39,191 nt of DNA from Asterionella formosa (GCA_002256025.1 NKIB01014977.1:1-39191), one strand, 5' to 3'; positions 10,934 through 37,546 are shown, numbered from the stretch's first letter. A program made the numbers and translations. Notes: generated by a model not told the origin, from the sequence alone.

Positions 10934-11628
10934 TGCTGAAGACAATACACGCCCGAGGTGGTCTCATGCCTGCGAGTACACATGTGTTCGAGGCTAGGTG
11001 GCGCGAGAAGGTTGACCATACAAGTGGCGTGCAAGAAGATCACCCTCCGAGTGCCATCCCAGCCGAGTACACATGTATATGAGAAGGCAAGTAGCCGCCG
11101 AGAAGGGTATTGTTGAGGCGATTCCCGCTCTAGCTATCGTCGCGTCATTCGCTTACCTACTGCCCACAAATAAAGCATAAATGTCAATTTTAGCATACTA
11201 TTGCCCATCATACAAAGTTATTTCGTTTATTTCCTATCTTCACCTCGAAAATTGTCTAAGGTTCGATATTGCCCATCATTAAAATATATTTTGAATATTT
11301 CATATGTTCGCATTTTGGCAAGACAACAGACGCCAATTGCCCCTCGGTTTTCCAGCCCTGGGATTGCCGAAATTTGCAAGGGGTCTACTTAAGGAAAGCA
11401 CTTTATATACTCTACAGATTTTAATAATTTATATCTAGAACTCACCTCGGTTTTTTCTTCTCCTGAAAAGTGGACTGAGGCAATTCATTTTTCACCATGC
11501 CAATCGTTGTCCATCATGACCGGTTTGAAGCGAAATCAGTTCAGTGATGATGCCAGTAGCGATTCGTTGTCAAACGGATGCGGTTGGTTGTTGTATTGCA
11601 TGTCTTCTCAAGGGATTCATGTAGTCGC
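10934..11628. mobile_element. Family B hairpin-ended element, copy 1 (truncated, nested in family A copy 1)
   Basis: Starts TGCTGAAGACAATACACGCCCGAGG and is collinear with 29539-30155 and 35466-36140 until ~11628. The right terminus is absent. Confidence 0.9.
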
Positions 11629-12987
11629 TTTGTTTAATGCAACACAAATGATTCAAATTCAGATTGAGCGGTTGTTGATGTTTGCAGCCAGTGATGGTAT
11701 ACATACAAAAAATGTATCGATATATGTACTTACAATATTCTCTATGATAATAAATATTATTCATATAAGATGATAAATCGAATTTATATGATCATATGAT
11801 CGCCATTATAAGATGCATCATACGAATTAGATGTTTTCTATTTGCAGACGGGGCTATGTGATGGTCCAAGGAGTGGACTACACAGAGTCTTTTTCACCGG
11901 TCACAACAGACACAACAATCTGGACAGCAATTGCTATGGCTGTATATCTCCAGAATGAAGAATGGACAATTGAGATGATAGACAATGAAGCAGCATTCTT
12001 AAAAGCAGAACTTGAATCAGACAGGCCAGTGTATGCAGAATGGCCAGAAGGCATGTTGGAACTCGGATTTATAACAGAAGAAGAAAAGAAGGAATTTTGC
12101 ATCAAGCTGACAAGAGCCATGCATGGTGGAGTCGATGTCCCAAGTCTTTTTATGAAGACACTGTGCAAATACTTAACAAAAGAAATGAAGATGATTCAGA
12201 GCTTGGTGGATCCATGTTTGTATTACTGAAAGAGTAAAGTGGATGAAGTCATTCTGATGGCTGTGGTACATGTTGATGACGTTTAATTGATTGGAACAAG
12301 AAAGACAACAATTGAAAAGTTCAAGTTGCAATTGCAGAAGAGGCTTAATATTTCGGATTTGGGAAGATTGAAGAAGCATCTTGGCATATGGTAAGAACGG
12401 AGTACTGATAAAAATGGTGAAATCTTCATTGTGTCTAGTATGACAAAGTTGGAGGATGAAATAAGTCATTCGAAAATATAATTCGGAAGAATGTTAAGGC
12501 AACAGATACACCAGAATATCCAAACAAGTTCCTCAGGAAGAATCAAGAAGAACTATTAAAATTGACGGAATATCGTTTTTATGGTTGGAAAAGTAATGTA
12601 TTTGATGACAAAGTTGGCACCAGATTTGGCAAACCCTCCGCAAGAGTTGGCAGAACATCTGTCAAACCCACCAGGCAAGGAGCACTGGAAAGCACTTGAA
12701 GGACAAATCGTTGGACACATTAAAGAAAGATACTATGATGGGTTGACATGATATTAGAGCCCAAAGGAGCTGAGGCCTATATCATTTATGGACTCAGACT
12801 ATGCAAAGCATTTTGATGTCAGGGCACATTTCAGCCGAGAACTTGAAGATCAAGGATATTTGATGGTATAGTTTGTATGATTGGACGAGAATTCAGCTGA
12901 CATAATAAGCAAGAACTTTCCAGAGAAGTTGCACACAAAGCACACTGCAAGGATAAGGAATGGGAATCTTGAATGTTGGAGGGAGGA

Positions 12988-13375
12988 TGTTGAGGATAAA
13001 CGACTACTATTAGCAGACAGAAGTATAACTAGTACTGCAATGACTGCACAGTCTTCACAACCAACAGTTATGGTGAGGAATTCCGTGAAACAAGAAGGTC
13101 AGTTCAGGAAAATATATGCAGGATTGTTCGTAATGGAACAGCAATTCCTACATATCAAGCCCAACATGCAAGATTAACTCATAAGTCTGAGATGATTGGC
13201 TGGAATTACAAATTGTATGAAATCGACCAATGGGAAAGAGTGGATTGAGATAAAGAACAAATCCAAGAAAGTAAGATTCATGAAACAAGATCAATTTGGT
13301 AAGACCAAGTAATTTGGCAGGATCGATAAAATTTGGTAAGATTGATAGAAAAAATAATCTGAGCTAATCACAACA
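12988..13375 (+). repeat. Putative copia 3' LTR
   Basis: Polypurine tract GGAGGGAGGA is followed directly by TGTTG at 12988. CAACA at 13371-13375 completes a 5-bp terminal IR. The right end is uncertain and could extend to ~13600. Confidence 0.55.
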
Positions 13376-14285
13376 TTGAAAGAGGCAAATCTAAAAGGAG
13401 ATTAAAGTTGTCGAAAACGAGCTAGTGGAGAACTAGCAGTACTGGACACTGGATGTGTAAGTACAATGCCCACTGATGCGTGAATTTTGGTTTACAAGAA
13501 GCCGAGATGCCGGGGTTCCTTGACTTGAAGTGAAGTGAAGCGGTTTAGATCAGTACAATAACTCTCAGAATACTTTAACGAACAGCAATAATATTTCCAA
13601 GTGCCAACCAGATTCTAAAGCATTGCAATTTATCATATGATCGCCATTGATTCATCATCCGATCGATGAAAGTTTGTTGAAAACAAAATAATAAAGTGAG
13701 AGGCAAGGTAGATGGTGCCAGTGAGAGACTCTAGAAGTACAAAGCAGTGCTTCAAAATTACAGAACTATTCCCTGAATTTTATGTATCATTGCATCTAGC
13801 CTTTCGCTCCTGTCCTAGATCTTGAACGGTGGCGGCAGCGAGTGTTCGCTTGTGCTTCCAAGTGGAACAATTGTTTCAGCAGCGTTTCCCTCGGTTTCTT
13901 ATGTTTCTTCTCCTTCATGTATTGTTAAATCCATCATTCCACTTCACTGATGTTTTTGTAATATGACTCCTTCGTTCAGGCATATGTGCATTTCTATTTC
14001 GAGTTGTTTCGCCGGGAAAGAAGCCAACGAAAAGATTGCTTGGTGTAAGCAATCTCGAGTCACCTTGTTTCCACTTTATAAGTACAGACAAGAAGGAAGT
14101 AACCACAGCTATCCTATTATTGTATAACTATATCGAATGCTGCAATGACGAGATGGAGGTTATGTCTGGAAACGTGCACGACGCCCATTTATAACACTCT
14201 TCATGTTCATCCAGGCAGACATGCGCTAAGCTCACATTATGTTCCTTGGAAACTGCCCTACACAAACTTTGCTCATGAAAATTCA

Positions 14286-14888
14286 TTAAAGTTCCTCATT
14301 TCCCTTCTCCAACGCCTTCAAGATGTTGAGACGTTGGTGCAACCACTGCTTGAGCTCTGCTTTCATCGAGTCGCCCTTCATCTTGTCGAGTCGTTCGATT
14401 TGCTTGGCACGAGCCTCCGAAGTCGCGGCCTTCATCTTCTCGATAAATCCAATCTCCTTTTCGGTGCACTCTGTTGGGTTGTTCACATCACACTTGACCT
14501 CGAGCTTGTCCACCACATGCTTCTTGAGAGAGTCCAAGTCCCTAGGTCCCTGGAAATCCTCACCACTCATGTTCCCATCTACGAAGTACTTGAGGGTTGG
14601 ATAGCCCTGAACTCCAAACTTCTCGCACAAAGATTTAGCCCCTTCTGTGCAATCGGCGTCCCCAATCAACACGGACGATGAAGCTGCATACTCCTCGGCT
14701 AGCTTGTCCCAATCTGGCTTGATCGCCTTGCAATGACCACACCAAGGCGCAAAAAACTTGACAAAGCCATTCTTTCCAGCCATCTTTTGCTCAAAGTTCT
14801 CAAGCGTCAGTTCTACTGCACCAGCGTTCGCCGTGGAGGCAACAAAGGCGATCGTGGCGACAACGTAAAGTAGCTTGTTCATCATCAT
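14286..14888 (-). CDS. ER protein disulfide-isomerase family protein with a single thioredoxin domain
   Basis: Start MMMNKLLYVVATIAFVASTANA (signal peptide), FFAPWCGHCK active site, GYPTLKYF, helical C-terminus and NEEL ER-retention-like end. About 200 aa; the ORF track's upstream extension runs into a repeat. Confidence 0.95.
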   Translation of the reverse strand: MMMNKLLYVVATIAFVASTANAGAVELTLENFEQKMAGKNGFVKFFAPWCGHCKAIKPDWDKLAEEYAASSSVLIGDADCTEGAKSLCEKFGVQGYPTLKYFVDGNMSGEDFQGPRDLDSLKKHVVDKLEVKCDVNNPTECTEKEIGFIEKMKAATSEARAKQIERLDKMKGDSMKAELKQWLHQRLNILKALEKGNEEL

Positions 14889-14949
14889 GGGAATTGAATG
14901 ACAAGAGTATTCTGTTATGGATTTCCTCGTTTTTGTGCTGCAACCGTAT

Positions 14950-15352
14950 CTACCGGTAGTAGTATTTGCTTGCACGTAATATAGGGACCGGTTTGCGTAT
15001 ACTGGAGTAACAGTACCTGGTACCAGGTACAAGGTACCTGGTGGTACTTGTATAATTCAACAACAGAGACCGGTAGTCAGTTTCTACTTTTTTAGGTTTC
15101 CATTATCATACTGTTGTACCTTGGGGTCGTTCTGCCTCAGCTACCAGCAAGTTGCGGTAATTTTGCTCAAACTATAAAGATTTAGCTATTTTTATCCCAG
15201 ATTAAAATGTCAGTTCAAGCAAAATGACCGCAACTTGCAAGCACCGGTAGATTTACGTTTGGAGTACCACCACCGACCATAACAGATACCAGGTACCAGG
15301 GTACTCTATCAGTATCACTCCCTTTTTTACATGTTATGTAGGACCAGGTACC
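14950..15352. repeat. GGTACC/CCWGG palindrome-rich array upstream of the PDI gene
   Basis: gtacctggtaccaggtacaaggtacctgg (~15013-15040), taccaggtaccagggtac (~15287-15304), ccaggtacc (~15344-15352). Confidence 0.8.
15147..15238 (-). mobile_element. Family D MITE-like element, copy 2
   Basis: Near-perfect TIRs GCAAGTTGCGGTAATTTTGCT...AGCAAAATGACCGCAACTTGC. The interior is the reverse complement of 5921-6011. Confidence 0.8.
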
Positions 15353-15353
15353 A

Positions 15354-15443
15354 GCAAGTTGCTGTCATTTGGCTTAAATAAACAATTCAATATAGGATTA
15401 AAGATAGCTAAACCTTTAGTTTCAGCACAATTACCGCACCTAC
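15354..15443 (+). mobile_element. Family D MITE-like element, copy 3 (decayed)
   Basis: GCAAGTTGCTGTCATTTGGCTTAAA...AGCTAAACCTTTAGTTTCAGCACAATTACCGCACC aligns with 5921-6011. Confidence 0.7.
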
Positions 15444-16254
15444 CAGGGGCTCGACCTTGCGAAGTAGCTTCGACTCAATTTCCGTCTCGTCCGTTACGTT
15501 TTCTCCATATGTAGTCTGTGTAGTTGCTTCGTAGGTACTTTGCTGGAATATTTTAAATCGGTCCATAGAATAATAGAATAGCGAGTCAGGGATGAAGAGG
15601 TACTAAGTAGGAATAGCATAATGGTCTTTTGAGTTCGGTGCTAAGTAAGAAACGTGTCCCGTTCCCAAATCCGTGTTCAAAAATCCGGATCCAATCTCCC
15701 AATTCTGTGGCAGTTGAGTTGCGCTTTGCCATGGGAGGACTTAGGGTGGGTGATTTAGACTATAAATTGCCAAGGGCTTGGCAATGCTTGCTTTAGACTG
15801 CTTCTCTGAATCATTATTCAAAGAATTGTGCGCTCCCCCTGCACTAATTCACGGATGTTAACCTTGCACAGTTGCTGCATTCTCCCTTGCCTTAGTAGCT
15901 GTCGACTTTAGTTGTTCAATTCAACTCTAAAGCTAGAGCTTAATAGTTGCATTGTTACTATATTAATCTCTCAGCTTTGACTCCTTTGATTCACATCGTG
16001 TGGTTTATTTAGTCCGGTGCTCGCCTGATATAACTCCATCGCTTCCGTCCTTGTCCATAATATCAAGTAACCAGACTGGTTCCAGTACCAACTAAAAACT
16101 GAGAAGCAATTTTCACACAATCTTACAACTAAAATAATAGAAATTTCTTAAATAAAATATTTGGAACAAGGATGAACCTTACCAGTATTGTAGCTTATTG
16201 ATAGAAAGGGGATATTATTTTTCCAGATCCTTCTTACTGGATAGTATTGCAATT

Positions 16255-16530
16255 GGTAGGGAATGGCTTAGTGGTTTAGCATGTTGCCTTTGATCTGAGG
16301 TTGTGAGGTTTGATTCCCGCAAATTTTTTTAGAAGCAATTGTTGGGTTCAACTCCCACACTTGCTTACTGTCCGGCATGGTCTTGCCTGCTGGTGTGCAA
16401 GAAATAGTGGGTTGCCCTCCTACAAGCAACTTGTGCTGCCTTCCCAGGCAGTCAGAGTTTCCCCTAACTGTTGCTAAGAATATCATCTTTTGCAGGAGGT
16501 GGTTGGGGACTCATCTACACTAACAAAAAC
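16255..16530 (+). mobile_element. Candidate tRNA-derived SINE or tRNA pseudogene
   Basis: A-box-like TGGCTTAGTGG (16264-16274) and B-box-like GGTTTGATTCC (16307-16317) at tRNA spacing, a second B-box-like GGTTCAACTCC (16345-16355), and an A-rich end near 16522-16530. Single copy in the window. Confidence 0.45.
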
Positions 16531-16837
16531 TAGGAAAGCACAGGTGTGTTTGGCAGGTTGTCCTATGAAAAGCCAAATGTAACCCCAAGCCTTAGAAAGT
16601 GCAACATAAGTGATTTAATTTCAGAGCATATCCAGTGAGGCATCTATGTCTCCCATGAACAAACCATAGATTGCATACCAGCAATTGCAATATGATGTTT
16701 TATGTTCACTAGTTTACTGGGTGGTTGAGGGATGGTGCAATGAAAGTGTTATACAATGAGAATGCAAAAGAAATAACTTTCTTGAATTCAAAAAGGTAGA
16801 CCAAGGCAATGAATTCCCAATATCAGAAAGCCCCAAA

Positions 16838-17686
16838 TTAGAAGTCGACAAGGCCAAGGTTACTTCCAACTAAAGATATCTTCCGGTGGTCATCTTCCAA
16901 GCGGTCATTGTACAAGCCATCATTATCATTGTACAAGTAATGTTGATCAAAGGAATTAGACCTGGGACTCGGGCGTCGCCATAAGTACCAAGCGAACATA
17001 CCAAGAATGCCGATAGTACCAATCAGGATCAAGAAGCTCCACAAAAACGAAGCCAGAGGGGTTGAAAGAGCTCCCCTCTGGGTCACATTCTTGGACCAAG
17101 AGGTGACTATATTGCCGGCACACATCTTAGTGTTGGCACCACCTAGATCAAACTTGTTTGGGTCCTTCGATGAATGGAAACCAACAGACACATAAGGAGA
17201 GAAGGCTTTATCATCGGAGGAGCTGGAAGAACCCGATGAGCTACTCCAGTAAAATTGAGTCGACAGGGTGTAAGAACCCAATGAAGAACACGAACTCCCG
17301 CTGGTAGATTTCAATGTCCCAAGGTAGCAGAGGCGAGCATTTTTATAGACAGTGACCGTCTCATTATTTCCCGATGCTGTCAGTGTCAACATTGGATCGA
17401 CACCGTTCAAATCATTGATAATATCGAACGTGATTGTGATCTTAGCCTTGTCTCCGGCTTTACAGGTTTCGCTGTCGCGGTACTTGCCGCTTCCGTAGTA
17501 GAAAGTTCCTGAGCTGTCGCATCCTACGGAAATGCTAGTAATTTGTATGTCGGAGTCGGAGCAGAGAGCGAAGGAGTTGTAACCATCTTGTGATGAGCTG
17601 CCACCACCTGAATAGCTTCCGTCGTTTGCTAAACTGATCCTTGCAGTAAGCAGCAGTACGCTGACCTGAGAGAGCCTCCGAAGCAT
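16838..17686 (-). CDS. Signal peptide + Cys-containing ectodomain + single TM protein (paralog 1)
   Basis: Likely start MLRRLSQVSVLLLTARISLA; CDSSGTFYYGSGKYRDSETCKAGDK; FDLGGAN; TM FLWSFLILIGTIGILGMFAWYLW. Clearly homologous to 32339-33064. Confidence 0.9.
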   Translation of the reverse strand: MLRRLSQVSVLLLTARISLANDGSYSGGGSSSQDGYNSFALCSDSDIQITSISVGCDSSGTFYYGSGKYRDSETCKAGDKAKITITFDIINDLNGVDPMLTLTASGNNETVTVYKNARLCYLGTLKSTSGSSCSSLGSYTLSTQFYWSSSSGSSSSSDDKAFSPYVSVGFHSSKDPNKFDLGGANTKMCAGNIVTSWSKNVTQRGALSTPLASFLWSFLILIGTIGILGMFAWYLWRRPSPRSNSFDQHYLYNDNDGLYNDRLEDDHRKISLVGSNLGLVDF

Positions 17687-18078
17687 TGGCGTTGTTTTCG
17701 TTTTGATTAGCGATGAATGATCGTGAAAAACGTTTTCGGCTTGTAAAGGTATAAAGGGGATTCGCGTAAACACTTAATCAGAAGCGATGAGTTGAAAAGG
17801 CTCAGTTTGCGGTCAACCAACGAAGCGAAGAATGAAATTGCCTTAGTCGATAGGTTTCGGCAAAATCGACTGAAGTCATCAAGCCACTGTTTGTTCACCT
17901 GCTGCCCCGTCTCCTCACTGTTTGGTTTCACTTCTGTTCGGTTAAAGCGGAGTTAAATTTCTCTTCATGGTCGTATACAATATTCCATATATGGCGATCA
18001 TTTGCAAACATGCTGGCGGCCCTTCCATACGTCGACCTCGTTTTCTTATTTATCATATATAAATACAACAGTAAACTT

Positions 18079-18335
18079 CCGGTACCAGGTAGAGTGCCAG
18101 GTAACGAGCGATAGCCAACCATGGCTAAATAAAGTCTATACCGGTACTGGTTCTACCGGTAAAAAATTTCATTCAGAATAAAACAATGTATATATATATA
18201 TTTCAGATCTAGAAATATGAAAACAAGGAGGAGTAGAATGGAAGGACGTGGGACAGTACATGTACTCTAAGTGGTATGCAACCTTGGCTGATGGGTGAAG
18301 AGTGGACTATCAGGTACCAGGTACCAGGTACCTGG
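18079..18335. repeat. GGTACC/ACCGGT palindrome-rich array upstream of paralog 1
   Basis: ccggtaccaggta, taccggtactgg, caggtaccaggtaccaggtacctgg (18311-18335). Confidence 0.75.
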
Positions 18336-18548
18336 TGAGCGATCCTGCACATCGATACAGATGTATATAGGGTTAGGGTTATATCAATTATATCAGAACT
18401 CGAGTAACACCTATTGTATACTTTGCTGTCAACTTGGGAAACAAGTTGTACATAAGATTAATTAGCTCATATATTCAATGAATACTACTACTTCTAGTTA
18501 GATACTTCACTTTGAATTCAAAAAGAGTCCATTTAGAAGAAGACAAAC

Positions 18549-20336
18549 ATGGCAATGTATTCAAGGGTTCCTGTCATTCTTTTGATCAAAGATTACAATT
18601 TATTGATTATCAAGACTAAAACACTCAGAGTTGCTTTAACCGGTGGAAGGTTTGAATCGTTTGATCAAGATATAATCGATGGAAGCTCTGTGGAAGCATT
18701 GTTGATTGGAGTGAATCAATTTTGTGACAGGGCTACTAACACATGTGCCTTTAGCCCTGCAGATACCTTTTCCTACTTTAAAAGGTGTTTGACCGACATT
18801 GCCTTGTCGGATTGGTTGAATGTGAAAGTACACCCAGAAGATCAATCCTACGATAGTATCGATGAAGTATTGGCCTTATGGTTAGATGATTGTTTACCAA
18901 ACAAGAGTTTTCAACATCAACGACAATGGATGCTACGCTACTTGTCTAAACCCTTTTCCATGTTGGTAATGGATTTCGTAGCTCGAATTAAAAATTTGAA
19001 CAGGCTACTTCAACTACTGCCTCATCCAGAAGATCAAAACGGATTGTCAAAAGAAGATATGCGGATTATCATCATCTGTTCTATGCCCGATGAGTGGCAA
19101 CAAGAGTTTGAATTGAATCATGCTAAAACTTCAGACCAATCGATTCGCTCGGTTCTCGCTTACTTCGAGAGCCAACAACCGTTTAAGGATCGAAGTCAAG
19201 CATCTTCCCAAGAACAGCTTTCAAAAAATCACACAAAATCGTCTGCGTATTGCTGAAGGCAATTGTGTGATGTGTCAAGAAAACGAGCATGTCAGTCGTC
19301 AATTCTACAACGATAATATTACTCCAAGTGGTCGTGGAAGAGCGCGTGCTATTGTCAATGCAGCCGGTTGCACATGAGATCTTCAGGCAACTGTTTGTCA
19401 TCAAGCTCTACAAGCCAGTCGTACATACCATGATTATTGTGGCCCTTGTCCGGTACATCCTGAAGGTAGTACACATACTTGGGGCAATTGTTTTCAGAAT
19501 CCTCGTACTCAAGGTGGTCGAGCAGGTCGCATGGCTGGTCGTCATTATGGATGTGGCCGTTCCAGTTTCGTTAGACGAGGAAATTTTGGTGGTCGTGGAG
19601 GCGGTTCACACAGTAATCCTACGAAAAGCTACCATTCTGACACTGCTAACCCTGTGTCAGTTCCACATGCTCGCATGTTAAATACATGGGGTCATAATAC
19701 TCATCCATCCGGTTGGGTTACTGTGCCACGTGCCAATCCTAGCGAGAATACATCTGCCCAGGAAATTTCAGTGGTCACGAACCCTCCTGCTGGTCAGATA
19801 GTGACTTTTGTCCCTAATACACAACAGCAGATTGCTGATCGCTATTACAGAGGTATGTGCGATAATAGCGATGCTATTTATAATGACTCATTGAGTATAT
19901 CTCACGTTAGTCATCACCTGGATAAAATTGTTTGTTTACAGGTTGAATACAATATGAATACCGCTGTTGCTGTAACGCGGGAGCGACATCTATAAATGCA
20001 TCGATGGACATGACGATCCACATACATATCAGGGCCCAATTCCGGTTTCCTGTTTTTCTTCTAAGGAAATATTAACGTCAATTGATCTGATTCCAATGTC
20101 TCTTTTAGCGCCACAATTGGTGGATGCTATGCCTATGCATAAAATACTACAAGTATTATTTGATAGTGGACTTATTCATCTCATGCCAGTGTTATTTTAT
20201 ATGACCTGATTCTACCTGAATTTAATCGATCTGCTCGTGTTTTACAACAAAAGTGTCAAGTTTTTAATGGTCTATGCACAATTGATGCTATTATAGGAAG
20301 TGATTTCCTTCGTCAAGTTGGTTTAACCATTGATTT
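18549..20336 (+). mobile_element. Degenerate Ty3/gypsy retrotransposon, part 1 (gag, zinc knuckle, protease)
   Basis: Gag-like QRQWMLRYLSKP...FVARIKNLNRLLQLLP...SMPDEWQ; knuckle CPVHPEGSTHTWGNC at ~19447; protease VLFDSG (~20153) and DAIIGSDFLRQVGLTID (to 20334). Confidence 0.9.
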
Positions 20337-21065
20337 GGCCAGCAGGAGGACAGGGAGGGAGGAGGGGAGCAAGGGGGGGAGGGGGGGGCGCCATCAGAAG
20401 TGGCATCAGGGAGATGAATGAAATAGGGATTCAGGGCCTCATCAGGCGAGATAAGCTCACCAAAGGAGGCTGGGAGAGACGAACCATCCAACAGGTCAAC
20501 CTGGTAGAAATCGAAGGCAGGGGTGGGGACAGAATTGATGAGGCCCTCAGCGACGTCACCATGGGGGGTGAGGCGTACAACTACCGAGCTACCTGGTGGA
20601 AAGGGTTCAGAGGCGGAGGAGGTAGAATCTGTGTATAACAGAGGTGGAGCCCCCTATCGTACATGATAGCGGGAAAGGGGTCGGCAATGGCCCGAGTAGG
20701 ATCAAGCGTTTAATCAGCAGAGACGCAAACACGGCTAAGGGTGGGATTCCAGAACAGCATTCCATTGGCGGTATCAGCACGCCCAAGCGCGAGGCCGGTG
20801 AAGCTCTGGCTTTCAAATTGGGAACCATCACGAGGGCGGCGGTAATAGGCAATGCAACCGAAAGGAAATGGGTCCGGAGGTGCGGTTTGATACCGTAGAA
20901 TAGCTCAAATGGGGTGGTGTAGGATGAGGAGGTGCCATGGAGGCAAGGAACAATATTCATGCGGAGCGAGGCCTCACGGACGGCCCAGAACCAGTATCAT
21001 TTGGGAAGGCCGGCTTCAGCCAGGAAGGAACGGGCCATGTTAGCAGCAACACGCCAGTGACCTTG
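20337..21065 (-). mobile_element. GC-rich Ty1/copia integrase fragment, different from the copia at 8560
   Basis: The minus strand reads GHWRVAANMARSFLAEAGLPK*YWFWAVREASLRMNIVP...TTPFELFYGIKP. There are abrupt composition shifts at both ends and no LTR. Confidence 0.88.
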
Positions 21066-21549
21066 CGTCTGCAAATAAAAACTATCATATTTCCATGATG
21101 CATCATAAGATTGTGATCATCTGATCATAATATTTCGTGATATCATCTAATAATTTTGATAAATGCCTTTGTAATTTAAATAGTAACCCTTTTGACTACA
21201 TATATTTAATAATTTCATGTATTGTTTCTATTAGATTTCTGTATTCGAATTTCTTGGTAGGATAATGTAATTTGGCTTGTCATTTCCATCCGTCATCACT
21301 CTGATTTTTGCAACAACAACGAAATACTAGCGAGGACAAGTGGAATGATTGTTTGCGATAACGTCACAAACACATTCTACTTGTTCTCGTTGACATTTTA
21401 AATTCTCACATGATACTACATCTACTACTGAGATTCAGCATAGAAGGAGATACGAAAATGTAACAGACTACTGCCCACATAGCTATAGGTATAGAATGAT
21501 TCTGATTAGAATTTCATTTTCATATCGCTCACTCGTTTCTGCATTTGGC

Positions 21550-21965
21550 ATGCTTACTTGTATTTACGGTTGAACTTGTCCGCATCTTTGATACCATCAA
21601 GAGAGCGAAAGCAAGTGGCTCTCATCATTGTTGTTTGCTTGTAGGAAAAATTTGATATCCATATCGTCATTTGCTTGTTGGAACTGTCCGTTGCCTGAAA
21701 CCTGCTTGGCGTGCCGACTTGTTTTCATTGGTATGTTGTTCTTGTATTCACTGTTGAACTTGTCCGCATCTTTGTTACCATCAATAGAGCGACAAGTGGA
21801 TGCGTCTCTTCATTGTTGTTTGCTCCTGGAAAAGTCGATGTCTGTGTCATCCTCATCAATAGAGAGACAAGTGTCCTTCATCATTGCGGTTTGCCGCTGG
21901 AAAAATTGGTACCCATGGTATCGTCATTCGCTCCTTGGAAACACTGTCCGTTGCCTCAAACCTGA
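21550..21965. repeat. Imperfect tandem duplication inside family A copy 2
   Basis: gttgaacttgtccgcatctttg.taccatcaa and actgtccgttgcct.aaacctg each occur twice, with a partial third unit. Confidence 0.75.
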
Positions 21966-22121
21966 TTAGCGTGTGTGTATGTGCACTGTCGACTTGTTTA
22001 CATTACAGGAGTGACTTGCTTAGCTGCTAAAGTGCGTGTTATAAAATCATACTCCGTAGTAATACTACAGTTCCCAATCATCTCATCAAATATGTACGCA
22101 CGTGTTATCGATACATCACAG

Positions 22122-22123
<2 letters not shown>

Positions 22124-22150
<27 letters not shown>
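22124..22150. repeat. (AAAT)n microsatellite
   Basis: aaataaataaataaataaataaataaat. Confidence 0.9.
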
Positions 22151-25070: not shown

Positions 25071-25214
25071 CTACAATGAAATAAATCATGAGCCACTACA
25101 TATAATATTTTACGCTGTCTAGATATGATTCCATAAGACCAAAAGTGCTATTTACATTATCATATACAAAATCAGAACCGAGTTTGAGTAAAAGCATATC
25201 TTGTTTTCAATTAT

Positions 25215-25442
25215 ATGATTATACAATCCTAAAAATATGATGATTTGATGTCCCGCTGCAGTACTAGCAGCAGTCATGAACATATGGTGCTCTGTTGCTC
25301 GCTTACTACTCCGACTATCCTTTTTCAATTTTATGATCATACGATCCTAAAACTATGATGATTTACTGTCACACTGCAGTAGCAACAGTCATGAACATAT
25401 GGTGTTTTGTTGCTTGCTTACTACCTGGTACTCTGACTACCT
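25215..25442. repeat. ~115 bp tandem duplication
   Basis: atcctaaaa.tatgatgattt...cagtcatgaacatatggtg...gcttactac occurs twice. Confidence 0.85.
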
Positions 25443-27150
25443 GGTACCCCCAGTATATCACTTCCTACCTGATACTGGTACTCTGTATATATATATATGA
25501 TAAAATGTTATTGTCGTATGATGTACCGATACACATGAAGAACTCCCGCCCAAAAAAGGGGCTTAAACAATTTGCTACCAAAATCCTCGCGTATAAATAA
25601 TGATACAAATGGGTTATGACTTAGTACACCAATTGAATAGTCTAAATAATTAGTTCCAACGGACGTAGAAATATTGATGCAAACAAATTTCAAAAAACAG
25701 TACCGGTACACGAAGTCGTGGACAACAATGGACATGTAGTGCATTGAATATTTTCGAATTATCTATATGCGAATATGATCATCTCAACAATACCAGATGT
25801 TCCATATTGAGAGTGCCTTTGACTTTTATAAATGTACGACACTTGATATATTTATATATTTACAAATTTTATAAATAGCTATATACATGGCAAATATATT
25901 TGAAATCGTTCTGTCATGTTAACAAACAATGCCTGCTTCATAAAAAGAAATATCGTAGTAAAGCACATGACAAGACAGGAACGTTTGCGCAAGAACGAAA
26001 AACATTGTGGCTTTGACACATTGCGCCTTCTAAGGATGAAGTATGTTTAAGGTAATGAAGCCATCATTGTGGTACTTGAATGAAAATCGTTGGGAGGCAG
26101 GACAACAACAAATTGTAAACTAAATGCACATTTCCTTTTTTCTCAGTTGATTCAACAGCTCGTTTCGCTTGTTGGGGAGCACCAATGTAAAACAAAACAA
26201 AGAAAAATTGGTAAGTGCTCTTGTCATTGGACTTATTCACTTCTGATGGAACATAACTGACGGACAAGCCACGTTTACCTTCTCTCAAAGTTAAGCTAAC
26301 GAAAATGAATTGGTAAGTTTTATTCGGCAACATTGGAAACCTGAAACTTACTTATTCAAGAATTTACTGACAATTTACTATTACAGACTTAAACATCACT
26401 TGCTTTGATTTGGCTGTAGTAAGTGAAGCGAGCAAGAGGATACAATGATATGGCGTGATGTTGTGTCAGTGCAACATGACTAGCTAACAAGTCATTCCTT
26501 CTCATTTTTACTGTAACTGCATAAGACAATAAAACCGATCAAACGGAATAGCCGGCGAATTCAGAATGACACCAACAACAGGGAGAGAGACGCAACATTA
26601 GTAAGGCATTGCTTGGCACAAGATTCAGAAAAGAGGAAGAAAAGGGCGAGACAGGAACAACATACATTGATCCGTGTAGAGCGAGAAACGTTGGGTCGCT
26701 GGCATGTAGATTAACAGATAGCATTTCTAAATTTGATAGTTAAATTACGATCCATTTCAATCTATTTTGAACAATGCTTGTGATTAGAATTATGAAGATG
26801 TTTACGATAGATTTACGATGAAACAATTTAAATGATAGCATAGAGTTGAGCTGATTTTAGGATGCGTTGTAGTAATAATTTACATCGAGCAATCACGAGA
26901 ATTGAAAATAATATGAGAAGGTTTATGATGATGATGAGTAATGTTGTTGAGCAGTTGATATAAATTGTGTGATGATAATGTTCGTATTATCATTATACTT
27001 CAAGGTCGGTAAAATAATAATAAACCATCATAGTTATAGGATACCTTGATCATAATTTTGATCCAAAAATTATCATATATACGAAATCCTGTGCCACTTA
27101 GCGTACGATACCCTTGATCCTATATGCATGATACTTTTTATTTGCAGACG

Positions 27151-28255: not shown

Positions 28256-28260
28256 AGTTG

Positions 28261-29339: not shown

Positions 29340-29451
29340 TGTCGAACAGGTCAGGTCAACTCCACTCCAGGTAGGAGACAACCGATACCGCTATGTACCG
29401 GTACACTTTTAGCAGCATCACAAGCAACCTTCACCATACCGGTAGCATTTT

Positions 29452-31635
29452 CCGGGTTGTGTCGGCCTGTCTTCCTATAGGTAAAACTTCTTTTTTGAGT
29501 TTCACCAACATTTTTGTTGAGCCAGTCAGCCAACAAACTGCTTAAGGCAATACACGCCCGAGGTGGTCTCTTGCCTGCGAGTACACATGTGTACGAAAAG
29601 GCAAGTACCGGTAGCCGCCGAGAAGGGTATAGTTGAGGCAACTCCCGCTCTAGCTATCATCGCGTCATTCGCCTACCTACTGCCCACAAATTTAGCATAA
29701 ATGTCAATTTTAGCCTACTATTGCCCATCATATAAAATATATTTTGCATGTTTCCTATCTTCACCTCGAAAATTGCCAAAGGTCCAATAATACCCATCAT
29801 TAAAGTATATTTTTTATATTTCATATGTTCGCATTTTGGCAAGACAACAGACGCCAATTGCCCCTTGGTTTTCCAACCCTGGGATTGCCGAAATCGGCAA
29901 GGGGTCTACTTAAGGAAACCAATTTATATACTATTCAGATTTGAATAATTTATATCTAGAATTCACCTCTTTTTTGTTCGTCTCCTGAAAAGTGGACTCA
30001 AGCAATTCACCTTTCACCATGCCAGCCAATTGTCGTCCGTCAAGACCGGTTTGAAGCGAAATCAGTTCCGCGATGACGCCAATAGCGATTCTTTGCCTAA
30101 CGGATGCGGTTGATTGTTGGATTGCTTGTCTTCTCGAGGTATTCATGTAGTCGCATCGTCCATATTTCGTCGGACAAATGATGATATCGATACATCTGAT
30201 GTTGGTGGCAAGTTTTTGCTCCGGTCATGTATGTAATGATGCTTAACGGATATTCTACGGGTACCGGCCGGCAGTCATCTAGTCTACATACTTTCGTGGT
30301 ACTAAAAACAACCATGCATGGTTTAAGCTATGCTTTAACGCTTACTTTGAACACGTAATAATATAATTTCTGTAGACTCGGTATTATTTTTACGAGACCT
30401 GAAATGTTGAATTATATCGTTCACATGTTCATTGATTTTCGTACCGTATGCCCGATTTCGTCCTCACAAATATAGTTCTCACTCTATCTTGCCTGCCTTT
30501 GCTCTATTCGGGCTTGCAATAGGCAACGTTCATCTTTCTTTGATCCCATCGTCTGCTGCATGTTATGCTAGTTGAAGCGGATCGGTGAGTACAACAGTGA
30601 AATACTGAATGTGGATTGTAGATCGTAATTATTGGGCCAACTTTCCGATTTGATTGCTTGCGTGGTTTGTTTTGATCGCTTCAATCGTTGTTTGTCGTTA
30701 CGCACTGTTGTTTTCTTTCGATTGTACATATCTACATAAGAACCAAAGCATTTATCAATGACTAATCATTGAGATGTGGTATTGTGCCGTTGTTGATCAT
30801 ATTTGTTGATTTGTATAGTCGTTGACAATGATGTCAATATAGCCGCCAAGCAATGCTTTTCTTGTACTAACGCGCTTTGCTACATTTCTACTACGAGTTC
30901 GTATCAGAAGCTACATGAATACTCAGCTAGAAAGAGAATCAATAGTGCTGGAGCAGCGTGGCGATCACGCTTGCTCAGAATGGAATGATCAGGGTTGCTT
31001 GTTTGGTGGGCAGCGGAGAGGAATGACTGTGGCGGAAATACTGCTACTGGTGTCAGGCTACTACAGCGATGCGCATGGTTGCAGAAACCAGACCATTTAC
31101 GCTTCATAACGATGCAGGTCTACATTGGGTTGAGCTTTTTTCTTCTTCTTTCGGTCTTCGATTGTGTGGTGATGGAAAGTCAATGTTGCCTGGTGTGTAA
31201 GTACTACAATGATTCACAATGCATACATCTCCATTGGAACTCTTATTTTTTATTTCATTTCTAACCCAAAACAATTTTTTCTATTTCTCATTTGATGCTA
31301 CTTAATACATCGCATTTCATACTTTGGTTGCTCCAAACATCATGTTCTATTTTCATTGATGTTGCATGTTCCAATCATTCTTGTGTGTTTTCCGCTTGTT
31401 GTACCATCTCTATGCATATTACCGTTATTCTGGTTGTCATGCTAAAATCGGCAATTTTATTGCCGAAAAATTCGATGTGCCCCATATTGCCCTTAAATAA
31501 AAATTACTTCAGAAATTACTTAGAGCCTAAAAATTACTTAGAAGTACCTGAATGGCAAGACAATAGCTGGAGCGGGAATTGCTATAGTACTTTATGCTGT
31601 TGCTCCTTGCCAGTTGCAGAAAAATTGGTTTTTGC
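29452..31635 (+). mobile_element. ~140 bp MITE-like repeat (family C) split by the family B copy 2 insertion
   Basis: 29452-29538 plus 31583-31635 align contiguously with 33789-33925. Confidence 0.7.
29539..31582. mobile_element. Family B hairpin-ended element, copy 2 (full length, 2044 bp, non-coding)
   Basis: TGCTTAAGGCAATACACG...GCGGGAATTGC, collinear over its whole length with 35466-37546. The subterminal IR at 29638 pairs with the right end. Confidence 0.93.
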
Positions 31636-32338
31636 AATATTATTATTTTAATACAATGGCTGAGAATTTCCAATAACAGTAAAACCTGAGGGAAGCAGAT
31701 CCCTAAAGGATTCAATACACAGCCACTGGACATCAATCCAAAGGTCTTCCCAATTCCTACTAGTAGCATGCCACAGGGCCACATTGGATTGCTTGCCATC
31801 ATATACTGATGGTGAATTGCAGTCTAGCAAAATCAATTGCTCTTTGATGCTTCTAAATGATGGCTTTCATTTGTCATTGATCTCACGGCAAGATATAGCA
31901 CACAAGGATGATGATCACAAGATAAGCAAACTCAGGTTTGGAAACTTGCTTCTTTCACTTTCTCCAGGAAACAGGTAGGCCAGCCAATCAAAATTCGTAT
32001 ATTGGGCTTGTGTGACTTGTGACTATGGTCATCTTTGTTGGCTCTGATTGCAAACTCTCCAGATGTGCACTCATATTGGCTATGAAAGCCTCCTGTATCT
32101 AAAAATGCTTCGAATTCACGGATTTTCAACAAATAATTGATAAAAACAGGTGCCCTATCTCACATCATAACTTGTTATATCAGAAACTTTTTAATTTTTA
32201 TCTGCCCAAAGGAAATGAACATGAGGACACGAAACATTTACAACCAGTACACATCAATTGAAATTTTTTGTTTAATTCACTTCCACAACATTTTACTACA
32301 ATCTCAAAAGGTTCAGTTGACAATCATACTTTAAATTT

Positions 32339-33064
32339 TCATGAAAGGGCATATAGCTCATGGGTTTGAGGATCGAGGAGACCACTCTTGTCCTCTGTCT
32401 TTTGATGCAACAAAATCATGGCAAAGAAAGCAACCACTACCACAGTGCCCAAGAGAATACCATAATTATTTCCAAAAGTTCCCGCTTGTCGAGAATATGC
32501 AAAATTAATAGATCCTTCTGCACCACCAGCACCCTCCATGTAGTTATCGCCATTCTCAGTACACACGATGTTGATGCCTCCGAGATCGAAGTCACCGTCA
32601 GCCTCAGTTGAGAAACCAATCTCAACCAGGGGAATAAAGGTGGTTGTGCTGCCTCCTGCAACATAGGGAAATGTAGTGTACTTGGTGAACGAGTAGGTTC
32701 CTGCGCTTCTGCATGACCTTCCGACCCAAGCCTTGCACAGATCGACTGAATCTGACTTGTATAATCGCTCGCTGTCGGTGTATATCCCCATGGTGGCATA
32801 AATCGTCATATCGTCGTCCACGTCTGCGAAAACTTCAAGAGTCATCGAGATAGCAACCCTGTCTCCATACTCACAAGTTGCGCTGTTTCTGCGTACCCCA
32901 TTTCCATAGTAATACGTGTAAGGACTATTGCACAACAGTGAAAGGCTGGTAATGGCAAGCACACTGTTATTGCAGAAGACATCAACAGCATCGCCACTAC
33001 TATCTGCTGATTGTGCGCGAAGAATTGAAACGACGCTGCAAACTAAGAGCAGATACCACTTCAT
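32339..33064 (-). CDS. Signal peptide + Cys-containing ectodomain + single TM protein (paralog 2)
   Basis: 241 aa: MKWYLLLVCSVVSILRA signal; CNSPYTYYYGNGVRRNSATCEYGDR; FDLGGIN; TM YGILLGTVVVVAFFAMILL. Confidence 0.9.
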   Translation of the reverse strand: MKWYLLLVCSVVSILRAQSADSSGDAVDVFCNNSVLAITSLSLLCNSPYTYYYGNGVRRNSATCEYGDRVAISMTLEVFADVDDDMTIYATMGIYTDSERLYKSDSVDLCKAWVGRSCRSAGTYSFTKYTTFPYVAGGSTTTFIPLVEIGFSTEADGDFDLGGINIVCTENGDNYMEGAGGAEGSINFAYSRQAGTFGNNYGILLGTVVVVAFFAMILLHQKTEDKSGLLDPQTHELYALS

Positions 33065-33569
33065 GATTGTGTATAGAAGTGAATAGTTAAAGAAGATTGC
33101 TGCAAGAGTACTTTGGAAAAGGGAGACTTATTCTCTGGCACCTTGACGAGTCAGTTACTGTTGAGAGGTCTGATCAAATGATAAACGATGATTGGTTTTG
33201 TCAACGAGAACAAGCGATAAGAAATGTTGAATTAATCCTGGCAGATACCAGTATATCCACCCAATGAGATGCCGGTTTGATTGATTTATTCATGACGATG
33301 ATGAGAATAATGCATACCTTCTATATATTTATTACCGTTTGCTACACGATGAAATCAACGATTATATCATGTATTTGATGAAAAGAAGAACGAGTACGAG
33401 CTACCAAGTATATTCTACAGAAATTAGGCGAGGACGCCGAGTAAACAATGGATGAGCATTGGAATTTATTCTATACGTATCTGAAAGGCTATATAAGATG
33501 CAAATAACGGATATTTACGCCTTACAAATTCTCTCAAATATTCAAGACTGAGTTCCTGGGGGTCTACCT

Positions 33570-33760
33570 GTAACCAGAACCGGAGGGTACTGGTACCTGC
33601 TACCCTGGTAGCTGTACCACGTAATAAAATAAAAACTGCTTTGAAGCTCTGTTTCACTAAAAAGTTCGATCGATTACCGGTACCAGGGGTACCTGGTACC
33701 GGTAGTTCAACTACCGGTAAAGACAGAAATATTAATTTCACGTCTGCTTACCAGGTACCT
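33570..33760. repeat. GGTACC/ACCGGT palindrome-rich array upstream of paralog 2
   Basis: ggtactggtacctg, ttaccggtaccaggggtacctggtaccggtag, taccaggtacc. Confidence 0.8.
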
Positions 33761-33788
33761 TCATCGCAGTCAAATGTTTGCAGTTTCC

Positions 33789-33930
33789 GGGGTGCTTTCG
33801 CTTTTTCCTATAGTAGGTAAAACTTCTTTTTCGAGTTTCACTGACATTTTTGTTGAGCAGTCAACAAACTCCTTCAGTACTTTATGTTGCTCCTCGCCTA
33901 TTTCGGAAAAAGTTGGTTTTGCAACACCCC
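33789..33930 (+). mobile_element. Family C MITE-like repeat, uninterrupted copy (empty site for family B)
   Basis: GGGGTG...CACCCC ends with a further imperfect IR (ctttttcc...tagg / ccta...ggaaaaag). Confidence 0.6.
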
Positions 33931-35465
33931 ACGACAGTGGTAAAGCTTGACAACTTTGCTAGCACCATGATGGTACGTTTTGAGACTAACACAGACCATA
34001 AAAATAGGTTTGTTGTAAATAAGCCAGCAAATATGGTTGCTGCATTTGAACCCCTAGCTCGAGGTAGGGTTATAAAAATAATATTGAGTCAGACTAATCA
34101 AACACGTCCTTTTCACGTATAAATCAAATATGTATAACGCTCAATGGAGCTTTCACCAATAGAGACCCTTTCCATAGGCTTACATACAGTCATCGGAAAA
34201 AGTAGGGGGGTAGGTCCACTCTATATATAGTCAGTATATAGGATCTGGTCAGAAACTGCTGAAATGAACTTATGCTAAAAAGACTCGAAAATTCGGGGGA
34301 AATCTGTTTATTTGGTATAGTAAAAAAAAGAAGTTCCTTTCTGCAGTTTCTCGCCAGAAATTATATGGTCTGCTGATGCTATTTGAAAGTTACCTAGCTA
34401 TGTATCGAAATCGCCTTCAGACCCAGCCAACGTTGAGCTATCGTCGTCCAAAAATTCGACAAAATCGACCTTTTCTAGGGTCGCCAAAATATTGGAATCA
34501 GAATTACTGTGAACTGAAACGTCATCATCGGAATAGTAGTAGTCGTGTGCCGGAATTTCTCCTATCCAAAAAATCCATTGTAAGTTCCCACTTCCAAATC
34601 TATAATATGATTGGTGAACATGAATTACATTCCTCCGCTTGATTGGCCCAGTTTGCAAGGTCTTGCAAGCCCACACCAGCCACATTGGATAAACCTGTAA
34701 CATTTTCTTGGGTGTGATGACGCACAGTCCGGTACTATATTCATTACGGGTACCAGTAGATGATCATTATTGAACATTCACGTACCACTCCTTGAGTGCA
34801 CTTTCATACATTAGCCGAGCCACCGGGTCGTATGCATGACACATAGTCGTCGATCGGAGTATAGATTGTAGTACCCGCATATACACATGAGAATATTTAG
34901 AATCCAATTATATATATATTCCGTGATTTGAATATGTTGAATGGATTCATTGTTATCACATAAAATCGTCAAACGGAGTACCGGTATAGAGAGTCCATGC
35001 ATATGTGTTGATCGCATTTTAGGGTATATATACATACAGCGATAAAGAATGTTTTTATACATATTAAGCGATTTCGACAAGGAATCTAAGTACGTATTCG
35101 CAGATTTCCACTGATTTAAATATTTCAAATGGAATCACGTCATTCCAAAATTGTTAATAAAATTCTTAATGCCAGGTAATTTTGGCAACCCTAAGCAATA
35201 TTTTATTTTTTGCCTAGGGTTTCAAATGCAGCAACCTTAAATGCATAATTTTTAATAGCTTTGTTCACGTAAAAAGTCATTACAGTCAGTACCAAAGTCT
35301 ACGAGAAATTCACGTAGCCTTTACCTGAGCAGTACCTCGTCCCCACCATGGCGGAAGTTCCTCTCCCCAACGACACCATAGCGGATATCACTCTCAACAC
35401 TCTTGTTCATGTATCGAAACTGGCTGCACAACAACGAAAGCGATTGCCCAAACGAGCTGGAATCA

Positions 35466-37546
35466 TGCTGAAGGCAATACACGCCCGAGGTGGTCTCATG
35501 CCTGTGAGTATATGTCCGGCGCCACTCGTACGGTCAACCTACTCGCGCCACCCAGCCTCGAACACATGTGTATTACGAGAAGGCATGAAGCCACCGAGAA
35601 GGGTATTGTTGAGGAAATTCACAAAGTAGCTATCGTTGCGCCATTCGCTGACCTACTGCCCACTCATAAAGTGTAAATGTCAATTTTAGCTTGCTATAGC
35701 TGCCCATCATATAAAATATATTTCGTATATTTCCTATCTTCACTTCGAAATTTGCAATGGGTCCGATATTGCCCATAATGAAAATACATATTTTTCTATA
35801 TTTCCTATGTTCGCATTTTGGAATTACAATTTGTGCCAATTGCCCCTCGGGTTTCCAGCCTTGGGATTGCCGAAATCGGCAAGGGGTCTACTTAAGGAAG
35901 CCATTTTATATACTCTACAGATTTCAATAATTTATTCTAGAATTCACCTCGTTTTTGTTCGTCTCCTGAAAAGTGGACTCCGCCAATTCACCTTCCACCA
36001 TGCCGATCGTCGTCCATCATGACCGGCCGGTTTGAAGCGAAATCAGTTCAGTGATGAGGACAGTAGCGATTCTTTGTCTAACGGATACGGTTGGTTGTTG
36101 GGTTCTTGCTTCTCTTCTCGAGGGATTCATGTAGTCGCATCGTCCATATTTCGTCGGACAAACGATGATAGCGATGCATCTGATGTTGGCGGCAAGTTTT
36201 GCTCCGGTCATGCATGCTGTGGTGATGCTAAACGGATATTCTACCAGTACCGGGTAGTCATCTAGTAGCCTACATACGTACGTGGTACTAAAAACAACCA
36301 TGCATGGTTTAAGCAAAACTTTAACGCTTACTTTGAACACGTTATAATATTATCTCTTTAGACTCGGCATTATTTTTACGAGACTAGAATGTTAAATTGT
36401 TTCGTTCACATATTGATTGATTTTACGTACCATATGCCCGATTTCGTCCTCACAATTATAATTCTCACTCTATCCTGCCTGCCGTTGCTCAATTCGGGCT
36501 TGCAACAGGAACTTTCGACTTTCTTATGAGCCCATCGTCTGCTGTGTGTTACGCTTGTTAGAGCGGATCGGTGAGTACAACAGTGAAACACTGAATGTGA
36601 TCGTAGATACTAATTGTCGAAGTTCCGATTTGATTGCTTGCATGGTCCGTTTTGATCGCTTCCATCGTCGTTTGTCGTTCCGTGCTGTCGTTTTGTTTCG
36701 ATTGTATCTATCTACATAAGAACCAATGATGATGACTACTCTTTGACGACATATTGTTGTTGATCGTATTTGTTGATTTGTATAGTTGTTTACCATGATG
36801 TCAATATTGCCGCCAAGCAATGCTTTTCTTGTACTAACGCACTTTGCTACATTTCTACTACGAGTTCTTATCAGAAGCTACATAAATACTCAGCTAGAGA
36901 GAGTCAATAGTGCTGGTGCAGCGTGGCGATCATGCTTGCTCAGAATGGAATGATCAGGGTTGCTTGTTTGGAGCTGGGCGGCGGAGGAATGACTGTGGCG
37001 GAAATACTGCTACTGGTGTCAGGCCACTACAGCGATGCGCATGGTTGCAGCAACCATACCATTTACGCTACATAACAATGCAGGTCTAAATTGGGTTCAG
37101 CTTTTTTCCTTCTTCTTTTGGTCTTCGATTGTATGGTGATGGAAAGTCAATGTTGCCTGTGTAAGTACTACAATGATTCACAATGCATATGTCTCCACTG
37201 AAATTTCTATTTTTTACTTCATTTCTAACCCAAAACAATTTTTTCTATTTCTCATTTGACGCTACTTATTACATCGCATTTCGTACTTTGGTTGCCCCAA
37301 ACATCATGTTCAATTTTCATTGATGTTGCATGTTACAATCATTCTCGTGTGTTTTACGCTTGTTGTACCATTTCTATGTATTTTACCGTTATTCTGGTTG
37401 TCACGCTAAAATCGTCAATTTTAATGCCGAAAAATTCGATATGCCCCATATTGCCCCTAAATAAAATTTACTTAAGCAATTACTTAGAGCCTAAAAATTA
37501 CTTAAAATTACCCGAATGTCAAGACGATAGCTGGAGCGGGAATTGC
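35466..37546. mobile_element. Family B hairpin-ended element, copy 3 (full length, 2081 bp, non-coding)
   Basis: TGCTGAAGGCAATACACG...GCGGGAATTGC, a direct repeat of 29539-31582. Confidence 0.93.

Follow-up and report, generated by a model that had tools for sequence, protein, structure and literature searches.

The window analysed here is a 39,191-nt stretch of the genome of the diatom Asterionella formosa (GCA_002256025.1, NKIB01014977.1:1-39191), which contains three copies of Family B, a repeat of ~2.04 kb without coding capacity and present at very high copy number. The copies were located by self-BLASTN and a repeat search of the window, and their exact ends were read from the sequence (Table 1). 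The two full-length copies, 2 and 3, share 86.5% identity over 2028 aligned columns (BLASTN), and neither contains an open reading frame (ORF) with a Pfam match. Each copy opens with a hairpin module, H, a quasi-palindrome of 194 nt in well-kept copies and of 93 nt in its short form, followed by one half of a terminal inverted repeat that is asymmetric (an ATIR).

Table 1. Family B features of the window, with positions counted from its first nucleotide
Feature	Position	Strand	Description
Family B copy 1	10934..11633	+	Left 700 nt only, right-truncated; BLASTN 87.7% to copy 2, 83.4% to copy 3
Hairpin module H of copy 1, forward and complete	10934..11117	+	Arm a 38/42 and arm a' 35/39 forward, scored against modules of contig L001
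Copy 1 H parts	P1 10978-10987; arm a 10988-11029; arm a' 11030-11068; P2 11069-11078; outer right arm 11081-11117		Outer left arm lies before P1
Copy 1 left ATIR (subterminal inverted repeat)	11118..11148	+	30/31 identical to L001 module
Family B copy 2, full length	29539..31582	+	2044 nt; TGCTTAAGG...GCGGGAATTGC
Copy 2 hairpin module, short (deleted) form	29539..29637	+	One palindrome, 29583-29592; outer arms 41/43 and 37/39
Copy 2 left ATIR	29638..29670	+	33 nt, 79% complementary to 31550-31582 (repeat search)
Copy 2 right terminal inverted repeat	31550..31582	+	Ends ...GGGAATTGC
Family B copy 3, full length	35466..37546	+	2081 nt; most diverged copy; terminal branch 0.084
Copy 3 hairpin module, rearranged	35466..35613	+	Outer arms forward (40/43, 36/39); P1 degraded (ATA--TGT); arm a' missing; arm a reverse-complemented
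Copy 3 inverted arm a	35520..35561	-	42/42 to reverse complement of L001 arm a; P2 next at 35562-35571
Copy 3 right terminal inverted repeat	37514..37546	+	Score 13 against shuffles 6.4 +/- 1.2, maximum 13
Empty-site paralogue of copy 2 flanks, without Family B element	33780..33924	+	Left flank 29445-29546 matches 33780-33877 (85/106)

The original prediction held that the hairpin exists in forward, deleted and inverted forms in the three copies; this is real, and the facts given for it all hold. In copy 1, positions 10943-11112 form a significant imperfect palindrome, with a self-reverse-complement score of 35 compared with -18 +/- 8.8 (maximum 13) for shuffled sequences. On recomputation, segment 10978-11030 was identical to the reverse complement of 35519-35571 in copy 3 at 48/53 positions, and the repeat search recovered 10977-11029 and 35520-35572 as 92% complementary (BLASTN E = 2e-16), whereas in direct orientation this copy 3 segment, aligned without gaps, matches the copy 1 hairpin at no more than 23/53 positions. 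The outer arms and the element bodies are co-linear between copies, as had been claimed. Copy 2 lacks the inner piece and has a single GTACACATGTGTAC at 29581-29594. Copy 3 corresponds to copy 1 with 10978-11078 turned and ~40 nt removed, so that its hairpin was not flipped as a whole and not cleanly inverted either. The motif ACACATGTRT occurs in the window at 10978, 11069, 29583 and 35562 only, all within Family B hairpins; its 7 strand-wise matches compare with 0.25 expected, and 7 was reached in 0/100 shuffles. An inverted match that lies within a palindrome requires a census of copies before it is called flip/flop.

Such a census was assembled from 12 left ends, comprising the three window copies and nine metagenome contigs (L001-L009). 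The contigs were retrieved with a 20-mer from the left outer arm, outside the variable part, so that no orientation bias was introduced. A viral contig collection gave 0 matches for an outer-arm 23-mer and 0 for a body 20-mer, and a prokaryotic genome contig collection gave 0 Family B matches. Left ends read TGCTGAAGG (TGC-TGAAGG) in 11/12 copies, with TAC in the remaining one, and their flanks are unrelated. From this boundary inwards there follow H and then a 32-nt inverted repeat of the right terminus (...GCGGGAATTGC). In copy 2, GCAA(C/T)TCCCGCTCTAGCTATC... stands opposite ...GATAGCTGGAGCGGGAATTGC, and the pair scores 19 against 6.6 +/- 1.2 for shuffles; in L001 the match is 27/32 with a score of 22 (shuffles 6.8 +/- 1.2), and the ATIR was also recovered independently by the repeat search. 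The weaker score of the copy 3 terminal repeat is due to its left ATIR being a variant. The layout combines an ATIR with a terminal hairpin that lies on its outer side. The right end is without a hairpin, the terminal 60 nt of both full-length copies giving z scores of +0.42 to +1.06 against shuffles on either strand.

Several of these copies bear on the insertion site. Copy 2 is an insertion, since its flanks recur without the element at the empty-site paralogue, where 33867-33924 is the counterpart of its right flank, 31577-31637 (48/62). At the empty paralogue the alignments of the left and the right flank share AACTCCTTCAG, and the lone TCC found there corresponds to one of the two TGC of copy 2. 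In L001 a right end abuts a left end head-to-tail (...GGGAATTGC directly followed by TGAAGG...) with one TGC between the two elements. TGC is present at each end of the two full-length copies and a single time where the elements of L001 meet, 3 nt being too few to be decisive. No flanking duplication beyond TGC was seen for copies 2 and 3, and the bases beyond the left-boundary TGC show no preference for T across the 12 copies. Two other readings of the ends were tried and discarded. An eight-base duplication at copy 2 (TGCTTAAG / TGCTATAG) was dismissed, given that TGCTGAAG opens every copy and that copy 3 has TGCCGTTT on its right side. Copies 2 and 3 are also not the long terminal repeats of one retroelement: the ends are TG...GC and not TG...CA, there is no duplication, no reverse transcriptase (RT), integrase or gag domain was found in 31583-35465, the empty paralogue lies within that interval, and other copies are solo with unrelated flanks.

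The construction of the hairpin is strand-asymmetric. Modules were defined on the well-kept hairpin of L001 (from left to right, the outer left arm with P1 and arm a, the loop, and arm a' with P2, the outer right arm and the subterminal repeat), and every copy was scored against them on both strands. The L001 module of 194 nt contains 10 CGAG and 0 CTCG, compared with a mean of 1.2 CGAG and a maximum of 6 in 2000 shuffles. The CGAG starts are mirror-symmetric, paired positions summing to 197, 197, 197, 196 and 197, and therefore each CGAG faces a CGAG in the folded strand, giving five CGAG/CGAG blocks spaced 15-21 nt apart along a 90-bp stem. In DNA hairpins studied by nuclear magnetic resonance, the CGAG/CGAG block consists of C:G, sheared G:A, A:G and G:C pairs, according to the cited passages of PMC10085684, and by analogy each of the five sites in H should adopt C:G, sheared G·A, A·G and G:C. 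H contains G·T pairs as well and, together with the CGAG blocks, these make it a good hairpin on the + strand of the window only. Copy 1 H has 7 CGAG and 0 CTCG. Copy 3 H carries three CGAG in its outer arms and three CTCG in its inner part, so that the inverted piece destroys the CGAG design. Short forms retain two CGAG/CGAG sites, and decayed copies have dropped some, mostly at CpG. As a side observation, the CGAG sites of the L001 hairpin and of window positions 10934-11117 often read CGAG(A/G/T)(A/G)GG, and CGAGAAGG is found three times in the right arm, an iteron-like direct-repeat flavour on top of the palindrome.

Folding predictions are in keeping with this asymmetry. The CGAG strand of L001 H folds as a single long hairpin at -49.9 kcal/mol with DNA parameters (z -7.3) and at -109.9 kcal/mol with RNA parameters (z -10.2), whereas the complementary strand gives -44.2 kcal/mol (z -6.5) and -83.9 kcal/mol (z -6.7), respectively. 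The window copies, all three, fold no better than shuffles with DNA parameters (z -1.17, -0.06 and -0.87), because these copies have decayed. Across 8 aligned copies, 93.3% of cells pair. The modelled hairpin structure is conserved and strand-biased, but its covariation is not significant and is no proof of it. Separately, copy 3 and L009 share the compensatory pair CATGCCT/AGGCATG, and also GCCACC.

The abundance of Family B was assessed from contigs of four runs (X1, X3, X7 and X8), each from a different study, placed on L001 at a likeness of at least 85%. The numbers placed per run were 91,556 / 3,732 / 1,942 / 1,859, and those from X1, which may be the source sample, are mostly at least 95% alike (18,923 at 99% or more and 44,159 at 95-99%). 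Family B is very abundant, with young members. The placed contigs measure 150-250 nt, too short for classification of whole hairpins, and their depth is not a copy number. At the left terminus the contigs run into dissimilar sequence (30 + 21 contigs in X1 and 12 + 11 in X7, with a consensus agreement of 0.36-0.44), which would be the pattern of a dispersed element. Among the 15 joints listed of 178, skips within the hairpin run 614>657, 548>657, 525>621 and 651>692 on L001, and there is one strand switch, joining 602 to 656 on L001, found in 2 contigs of X1 only. Loose ends at L001 549/555, among the 24 listed of 1,657, show ATTCCCGCTCTAGC of the subterminal repeat replaced by ATTCACAAA.TAGC, as in copy 3; this variant represents a sizeable subfamily, with 9-15 contigs per run in X3, X7 and X8.

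In the census of left ends, 10/12 could be classified, with 5 forward, 4 without the inner module and 1 inverted; contigs L006 and L008 end too early. The inner module is forward and complete in copy 1, L001 and L007, and forward but partial in L002, where the contig stops 13 nt into arm a, and in L005, where arm a matches at 39/42 before unrelated sequence. It is absent from copy 2 (module scores of 7-10 for arms a and a'), L003, L004 and L009, and inverted in copy 3 only. The short-form L004 and the full-form L001 are 98.7% identical over 302 nt, and a tree of 7 bodies is a star in which 0/4 inner branches are supported; whether a hairpin is full or short does not track relatedness. The short forms have junction decamers of three kinds, ATACATGTAT, ACACATGTAT and ACACATGTGT, the last of these being seen twice. 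Within L009, positions 2821-3300 (oriented) hold a short Family B derivative, a short-form hairpin followed by right-end fragments, in which half the hairpin is partly duplicated and which are interleaved with another repeat starting TATGACAATTTTATCC.

The original prediction had raised the possibility that the isomers are the flip/flop mark of rolling-hairpin replication, as in parvoviruses, in which case the hairpin would be a replication telomere resolved by an HUH nuclease and both orientations would be regular products. An inverted inner segment does exist, one further strand-switch joint was seen in the 2 X1 contigs, and the hairpin seems made for single-stranded DNA (ssDNA). The census and the anatomy nevertheless speak against such a programme, and the outcome is one that the original prediction had itself named as refuting. 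The inverted form was found in a single copy among the 10 classifiable ends, and this copy has lost an arm and retains its outer arms in the original orientation. Breakpoints vary, those of the other strand-switch joint being different from those of copy 3; the hairpin is present at one end of the element only, and the CGAG design makes the two orientations unequal. Regular flip/flop is accordingly judged very unlikely, although L008, in which a forward hairpin lies next to an inverted body, counts in its favour. Positions 1-1017 of this contig (oriented) are the reverse complement of Family B 100-1060 and lead through ...GGGAATTGC, followed by TGAAGG, into a forward left hairpin arm, the contig stopping 52 nt into the hairpin. 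L008 could have arisen when a new copy entered an older, inverted one behind its ATTGC, or by a flip of the whole hairpin, or it could be a chimeric contig.

Assemblies are prone to errors at palindromes, and the locus on which the short contigs were placed is L001, so that the copy 3 arrangement might be imagined to be an assembly artefact. The inverted piece is short (53 nt), matches the arm of an independent contig at 42/42 and has co-linear sequence on either side, with substitutions of its own and a deletion of 40 nt; a strand-switch joint moreover occurs in independent contigs too. An artefact is considered extremely improbable. The distribution of the inner module also raises the idea that it is a separate palindromic insertion, like a miniature inverted-repeat transposable element (MITE), placed independently into the palindromic centre of the short hairpin in either orientation, with P as its target-site duplication. 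The short form is indeed already a complete hairpin, and presence or absence of the module does not track the tree. Yet P1 and P2 of L001 and L007 are each other's reverse complements, which fits a stem and not an identical direct duplication, and the mirrored CGAG arrangement of the outer arms runs on into the inner module. Within the window this module was seen nowhere but in H, and its summed depth in X1 does not exceed the depth of the outer arms (1.5-1.9 M compared with 1.9-2.1 M), a weak point given that depth is not a copy number. An inserted module of this kind is therefore regarded as unlikely.

The suggestion that the palindromic sites act as both direct and inverted repeats stands as a lead, in that deletions end in P1/P2. 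This could reflect a tyrosine or serine recombinase acting on the P sites, with excision between them as direct repeats and inversion between them as inverted repeats, on an element that is possibly Crypton-like with crossover at TGC. Short terminal direct repeats are said to be important for Cryptons (PMC3627910, in the passages cited), and single copies have TGC at either end, the head-to-tail junction having it just once. Against recombination of this type, the copy 3 inversion is non-reciprocal, with an arm missing, the other hairpin deletions have scattered breakpoints, and a double-strand enzyme leaves the one-strand CGAG design unexplained. Domain scans covered all 171 stop-to-stop ORFs of at least 65 amino acids in the window and 12/25 ORFs of at least 80 amino acids in L002, L005 and L009. 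The HUH or recombinase ORFs for which a search had been proposed were not found among them; in the window ORFs two RVT_2 fragments were the sole trace of a mobile-element enzyme, and the contig ORFs scanned yielded nothing but host genes. A recombinase is accordingly held to be rather improbable. The proposal of an ssDNA intermediate survives as a lead on account of the 10 CGAG and 0 CTCG of the L001 hairpin and of ends like those of HUH-mobilised transposons, although the scanned ORFs contain neither an HUH nor a recombinase domain.

The explanation favoured here, with somewhat better than even confidence, is that the three isomers are sporadic by-products of deletion and rearrangement on an abundant non-autonomous element moved as ssDNA by an HUH-type enzyme, and are not the output of a programme. 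The sequences themselves show how the element is built, the numbers of each form, the difference between the strands and the junctions, whereas ssDNA transposition, the HUH enzyme and slippage or template switching are inferred. Family B would be moved in trans by an ssDNA-handling enzyme, an HUH/Rep type being the best guess, for which (A/T)TGC would mark the cut, made just behind it at the left boundary, the right end and the target alike. The P1 of full copies (ATACATGTGT) is the reverse complement of their P2 (ACACATGTAT), yet the two are nearly identical (2/10 differences in L001 and L007). Each P site is a near-palindrome, and the inner stem is therefore flanked at its base by direct repeats, P1 and P2, that are nearly identical; being both complementary and almost identical, they allow copying or repair of a folded strand to skip from one to the other. 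Palindrome instability is known from bacterial and yeast genetics, where direct repeats at the base of a stem undergo slipped mispairing and template switching yields inversions. Slippage between P1 and P2 may likewise have caused repeated loss of the inner stem (copy 2, L003, L004 and L009), and a rare strand switch may have produced copy 3, with one arm kept in inverted orientation and the other lost, so that its hairpin would no longer fold.

A number of observations weigh against this explanation. The inverted arm of copy 3 is 42/42 identical to L001 although the copy 3 body is 89.0% identical to L001 over 527 columns, which in-situ inversion of an old copy does not predict and which suggests, from sequence comparison, that another family member served as the source of the arm and that it was not inverted where it stood. 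A census of 10 copies is tiny for a family that probably numbers thousands, the placed contigs are too short to classify copies, and the joints listed are 15/178. L008 has an inverted left body abutting a forward hairpin, and a whole-hairpin flip is among its possible readings. Covariation within the hairpin is weak, with 1 compensatory pair, a score reached by 57/500 shuffles and a paired percentage reached by 25/500. The strand asymmetry is greater with RNA than with DNA parameters, and an RNA role is possible. Moreover, the scanned ORFs of the window, L002, L005 and L009 yielded no domain of a Rep, a helicase, a recombinase or a transposase, and the enzyme class is therefore a guess from the anatomy.

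A more specific and decidedly tentative proposal is that diatoms have an undescribed lineage of HUH (Rep) transposons, to which Family B would belong as a non-autonomous partner. Its ~190-nt ssDNA hairpin with five CGAG blocks would serve as the recognition and termination signal, the nuclease would cut behind (A/T)TGC in the target as well as at either end, and copying of the folded strand would have left the deleted and inverted forms as scars. If the ssDNA reading is true, diatoms would harbour a high-copy, recently active element of rolling-circle type, with a recognition hairpin that is far larger and differently built than those described for Helitrons, Replitrons and IS200/IS605. The regularly spaced CGAG/CGAG blocks offer a handle for biophysics and for identification of the enzyme, and the series of deletions with one inversion is natural material on the decay of a long quasi-palindrome in a eukaryotic genome.

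Several other features lie in the window and on the contigs. A copia-type RT (RVT_2) is split into 8869-9294 (model 9-42) and 11831-12226 (model 40-140), ~2.6 kb apart; Family B copy 1 and other sequence lie between the fragments, which identifies a nested insertion. A related fragment is present in inverted orientation at 27084-27150 (85%), and 11764-11850 is 76% complementary to 21066-21152. A MITE-like repeat of ~95 nt occurs in direct and inverted orientation with 80-95% identity at 5908-6011, 15147-15238 and 15343-15441, and short tandem duplications are found at 9571-9782 (period ~71-111), 21545-21973 (184) and 25204-25424 (115 nt). Host genes, all on the minus strand, encode ribosomal protein L32e (4771-5211), a thioredoxin/ERp29-type protein (14289-15056) and a glycosyltransferase family 28 C-terminal domain (38678-39190). 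Genes for a tocopherol cyclase and a trypsin-like protease lie beside the Family B copies of L002 and L009. The ORF at 32342-33127 has an Atlas match with a score of 0.87, which is a lead only, and two Atlas matches with Bacillariophyta as the commonest phylum provide a weak lead to a diatom host, probably a freshwater one. No tRNA genes were found in the window, and Rfam at gathering thresholds gave 0 matches in it.

Among known systems, Family B resembles Helitron2/Helentron elements, which are rolling-circle transposons of RepHel type, and their non-autonomous HINE/DINE-1 derivatives in having a terminal inverted repeat whose partner is subterminal, just inside a terminal hairpin, and it shares with Helitron2/Helentron the lack of a clear target-site duplication, the high-copy non-coding derivatives and the occurrence of joined-end or tandem forms, as these are described in the cited passages (PMC3627910, PMC4067079, PMC5148889). 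The dimensions greatly exceed those published for Helitron2/Helentron in the cited part of PMC3627910: the ATIR of Family B is 32 nt compared with 8-15, its hairpin is 93-194 nt, and its subterminal repeat lies ~100-190 nt from the end compared with 20-60. Unlike Helitron2 as described there, Family B is without a second hairpin overlapping the terminal ATIR, and its flanks are (A/T)TGC, not the TT or TTTT of Helitron2/Helentron (PMC3627910). No RepHel partner with Family B ends was found in the window or in the scanned ORFs of L002, L005 and L009. Replitrons, the Y1 Rep transposons of algae and protists, are similar in having a hairpin near one end and orientation-specific insertion just 3' of a short target, their hosts include stramenopile algae, and the TGC of Family B may be a counterpart of their short terminal direct repeats, whereas Replitron-1 has a repeat of 6 nt and a hairpin that is an 11-bp palindrome; none was detected in diatoms, according to the cited passages (Craig 2023, PMC10288648). 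The CGAG hairpins of the human AUTS2 promoter consist of tandem CGAG units, as presented in the cited part of PMC10085684, whereas the Family B blocks are spaced and belong to a mobile element.

A keyword search of open-access papers found no literature on such an element in diatoms. The prokaryotic IS200/IS605 elements, which carry a Y1 HUH enzyme and move by single-strand 'peel and paste', have hairpins of ~20-40 nt at both ends. Family B resembles them in its imperfect hairpin, which would correspond to their recognition hairpins, in insertion 3' of a fixed short sequence without duplication and in a joined form of right to left end such as their intermediates show, and differs in having a hairpin at one end only, of 93-194 nt. 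We know of no IS200/IS605-type element in eukaryotic nuclei. In parvoviruses, hairpins are present at both ends, the whole hairpin inverts, and flip and flop are about equal. The shared features are a terminal imperfect palindrome with internal asymmetry and the context of an HUH nuclease; Family B, in contrast, has one hairpin, and 1/10 copies is inverted, partly and with loss of an arm. Membership of Family B in any HUH family, as far as these analogies go, is unproven. Its deletions resemble those of palindrome instability, a process and not a family of elements, in that they end in short repeats where the stem begins, with one-arm inversion being rare. Taken by analogy with these systems, Family B is probably an unclassified, non-autonomous transposon of rolling-circle type.

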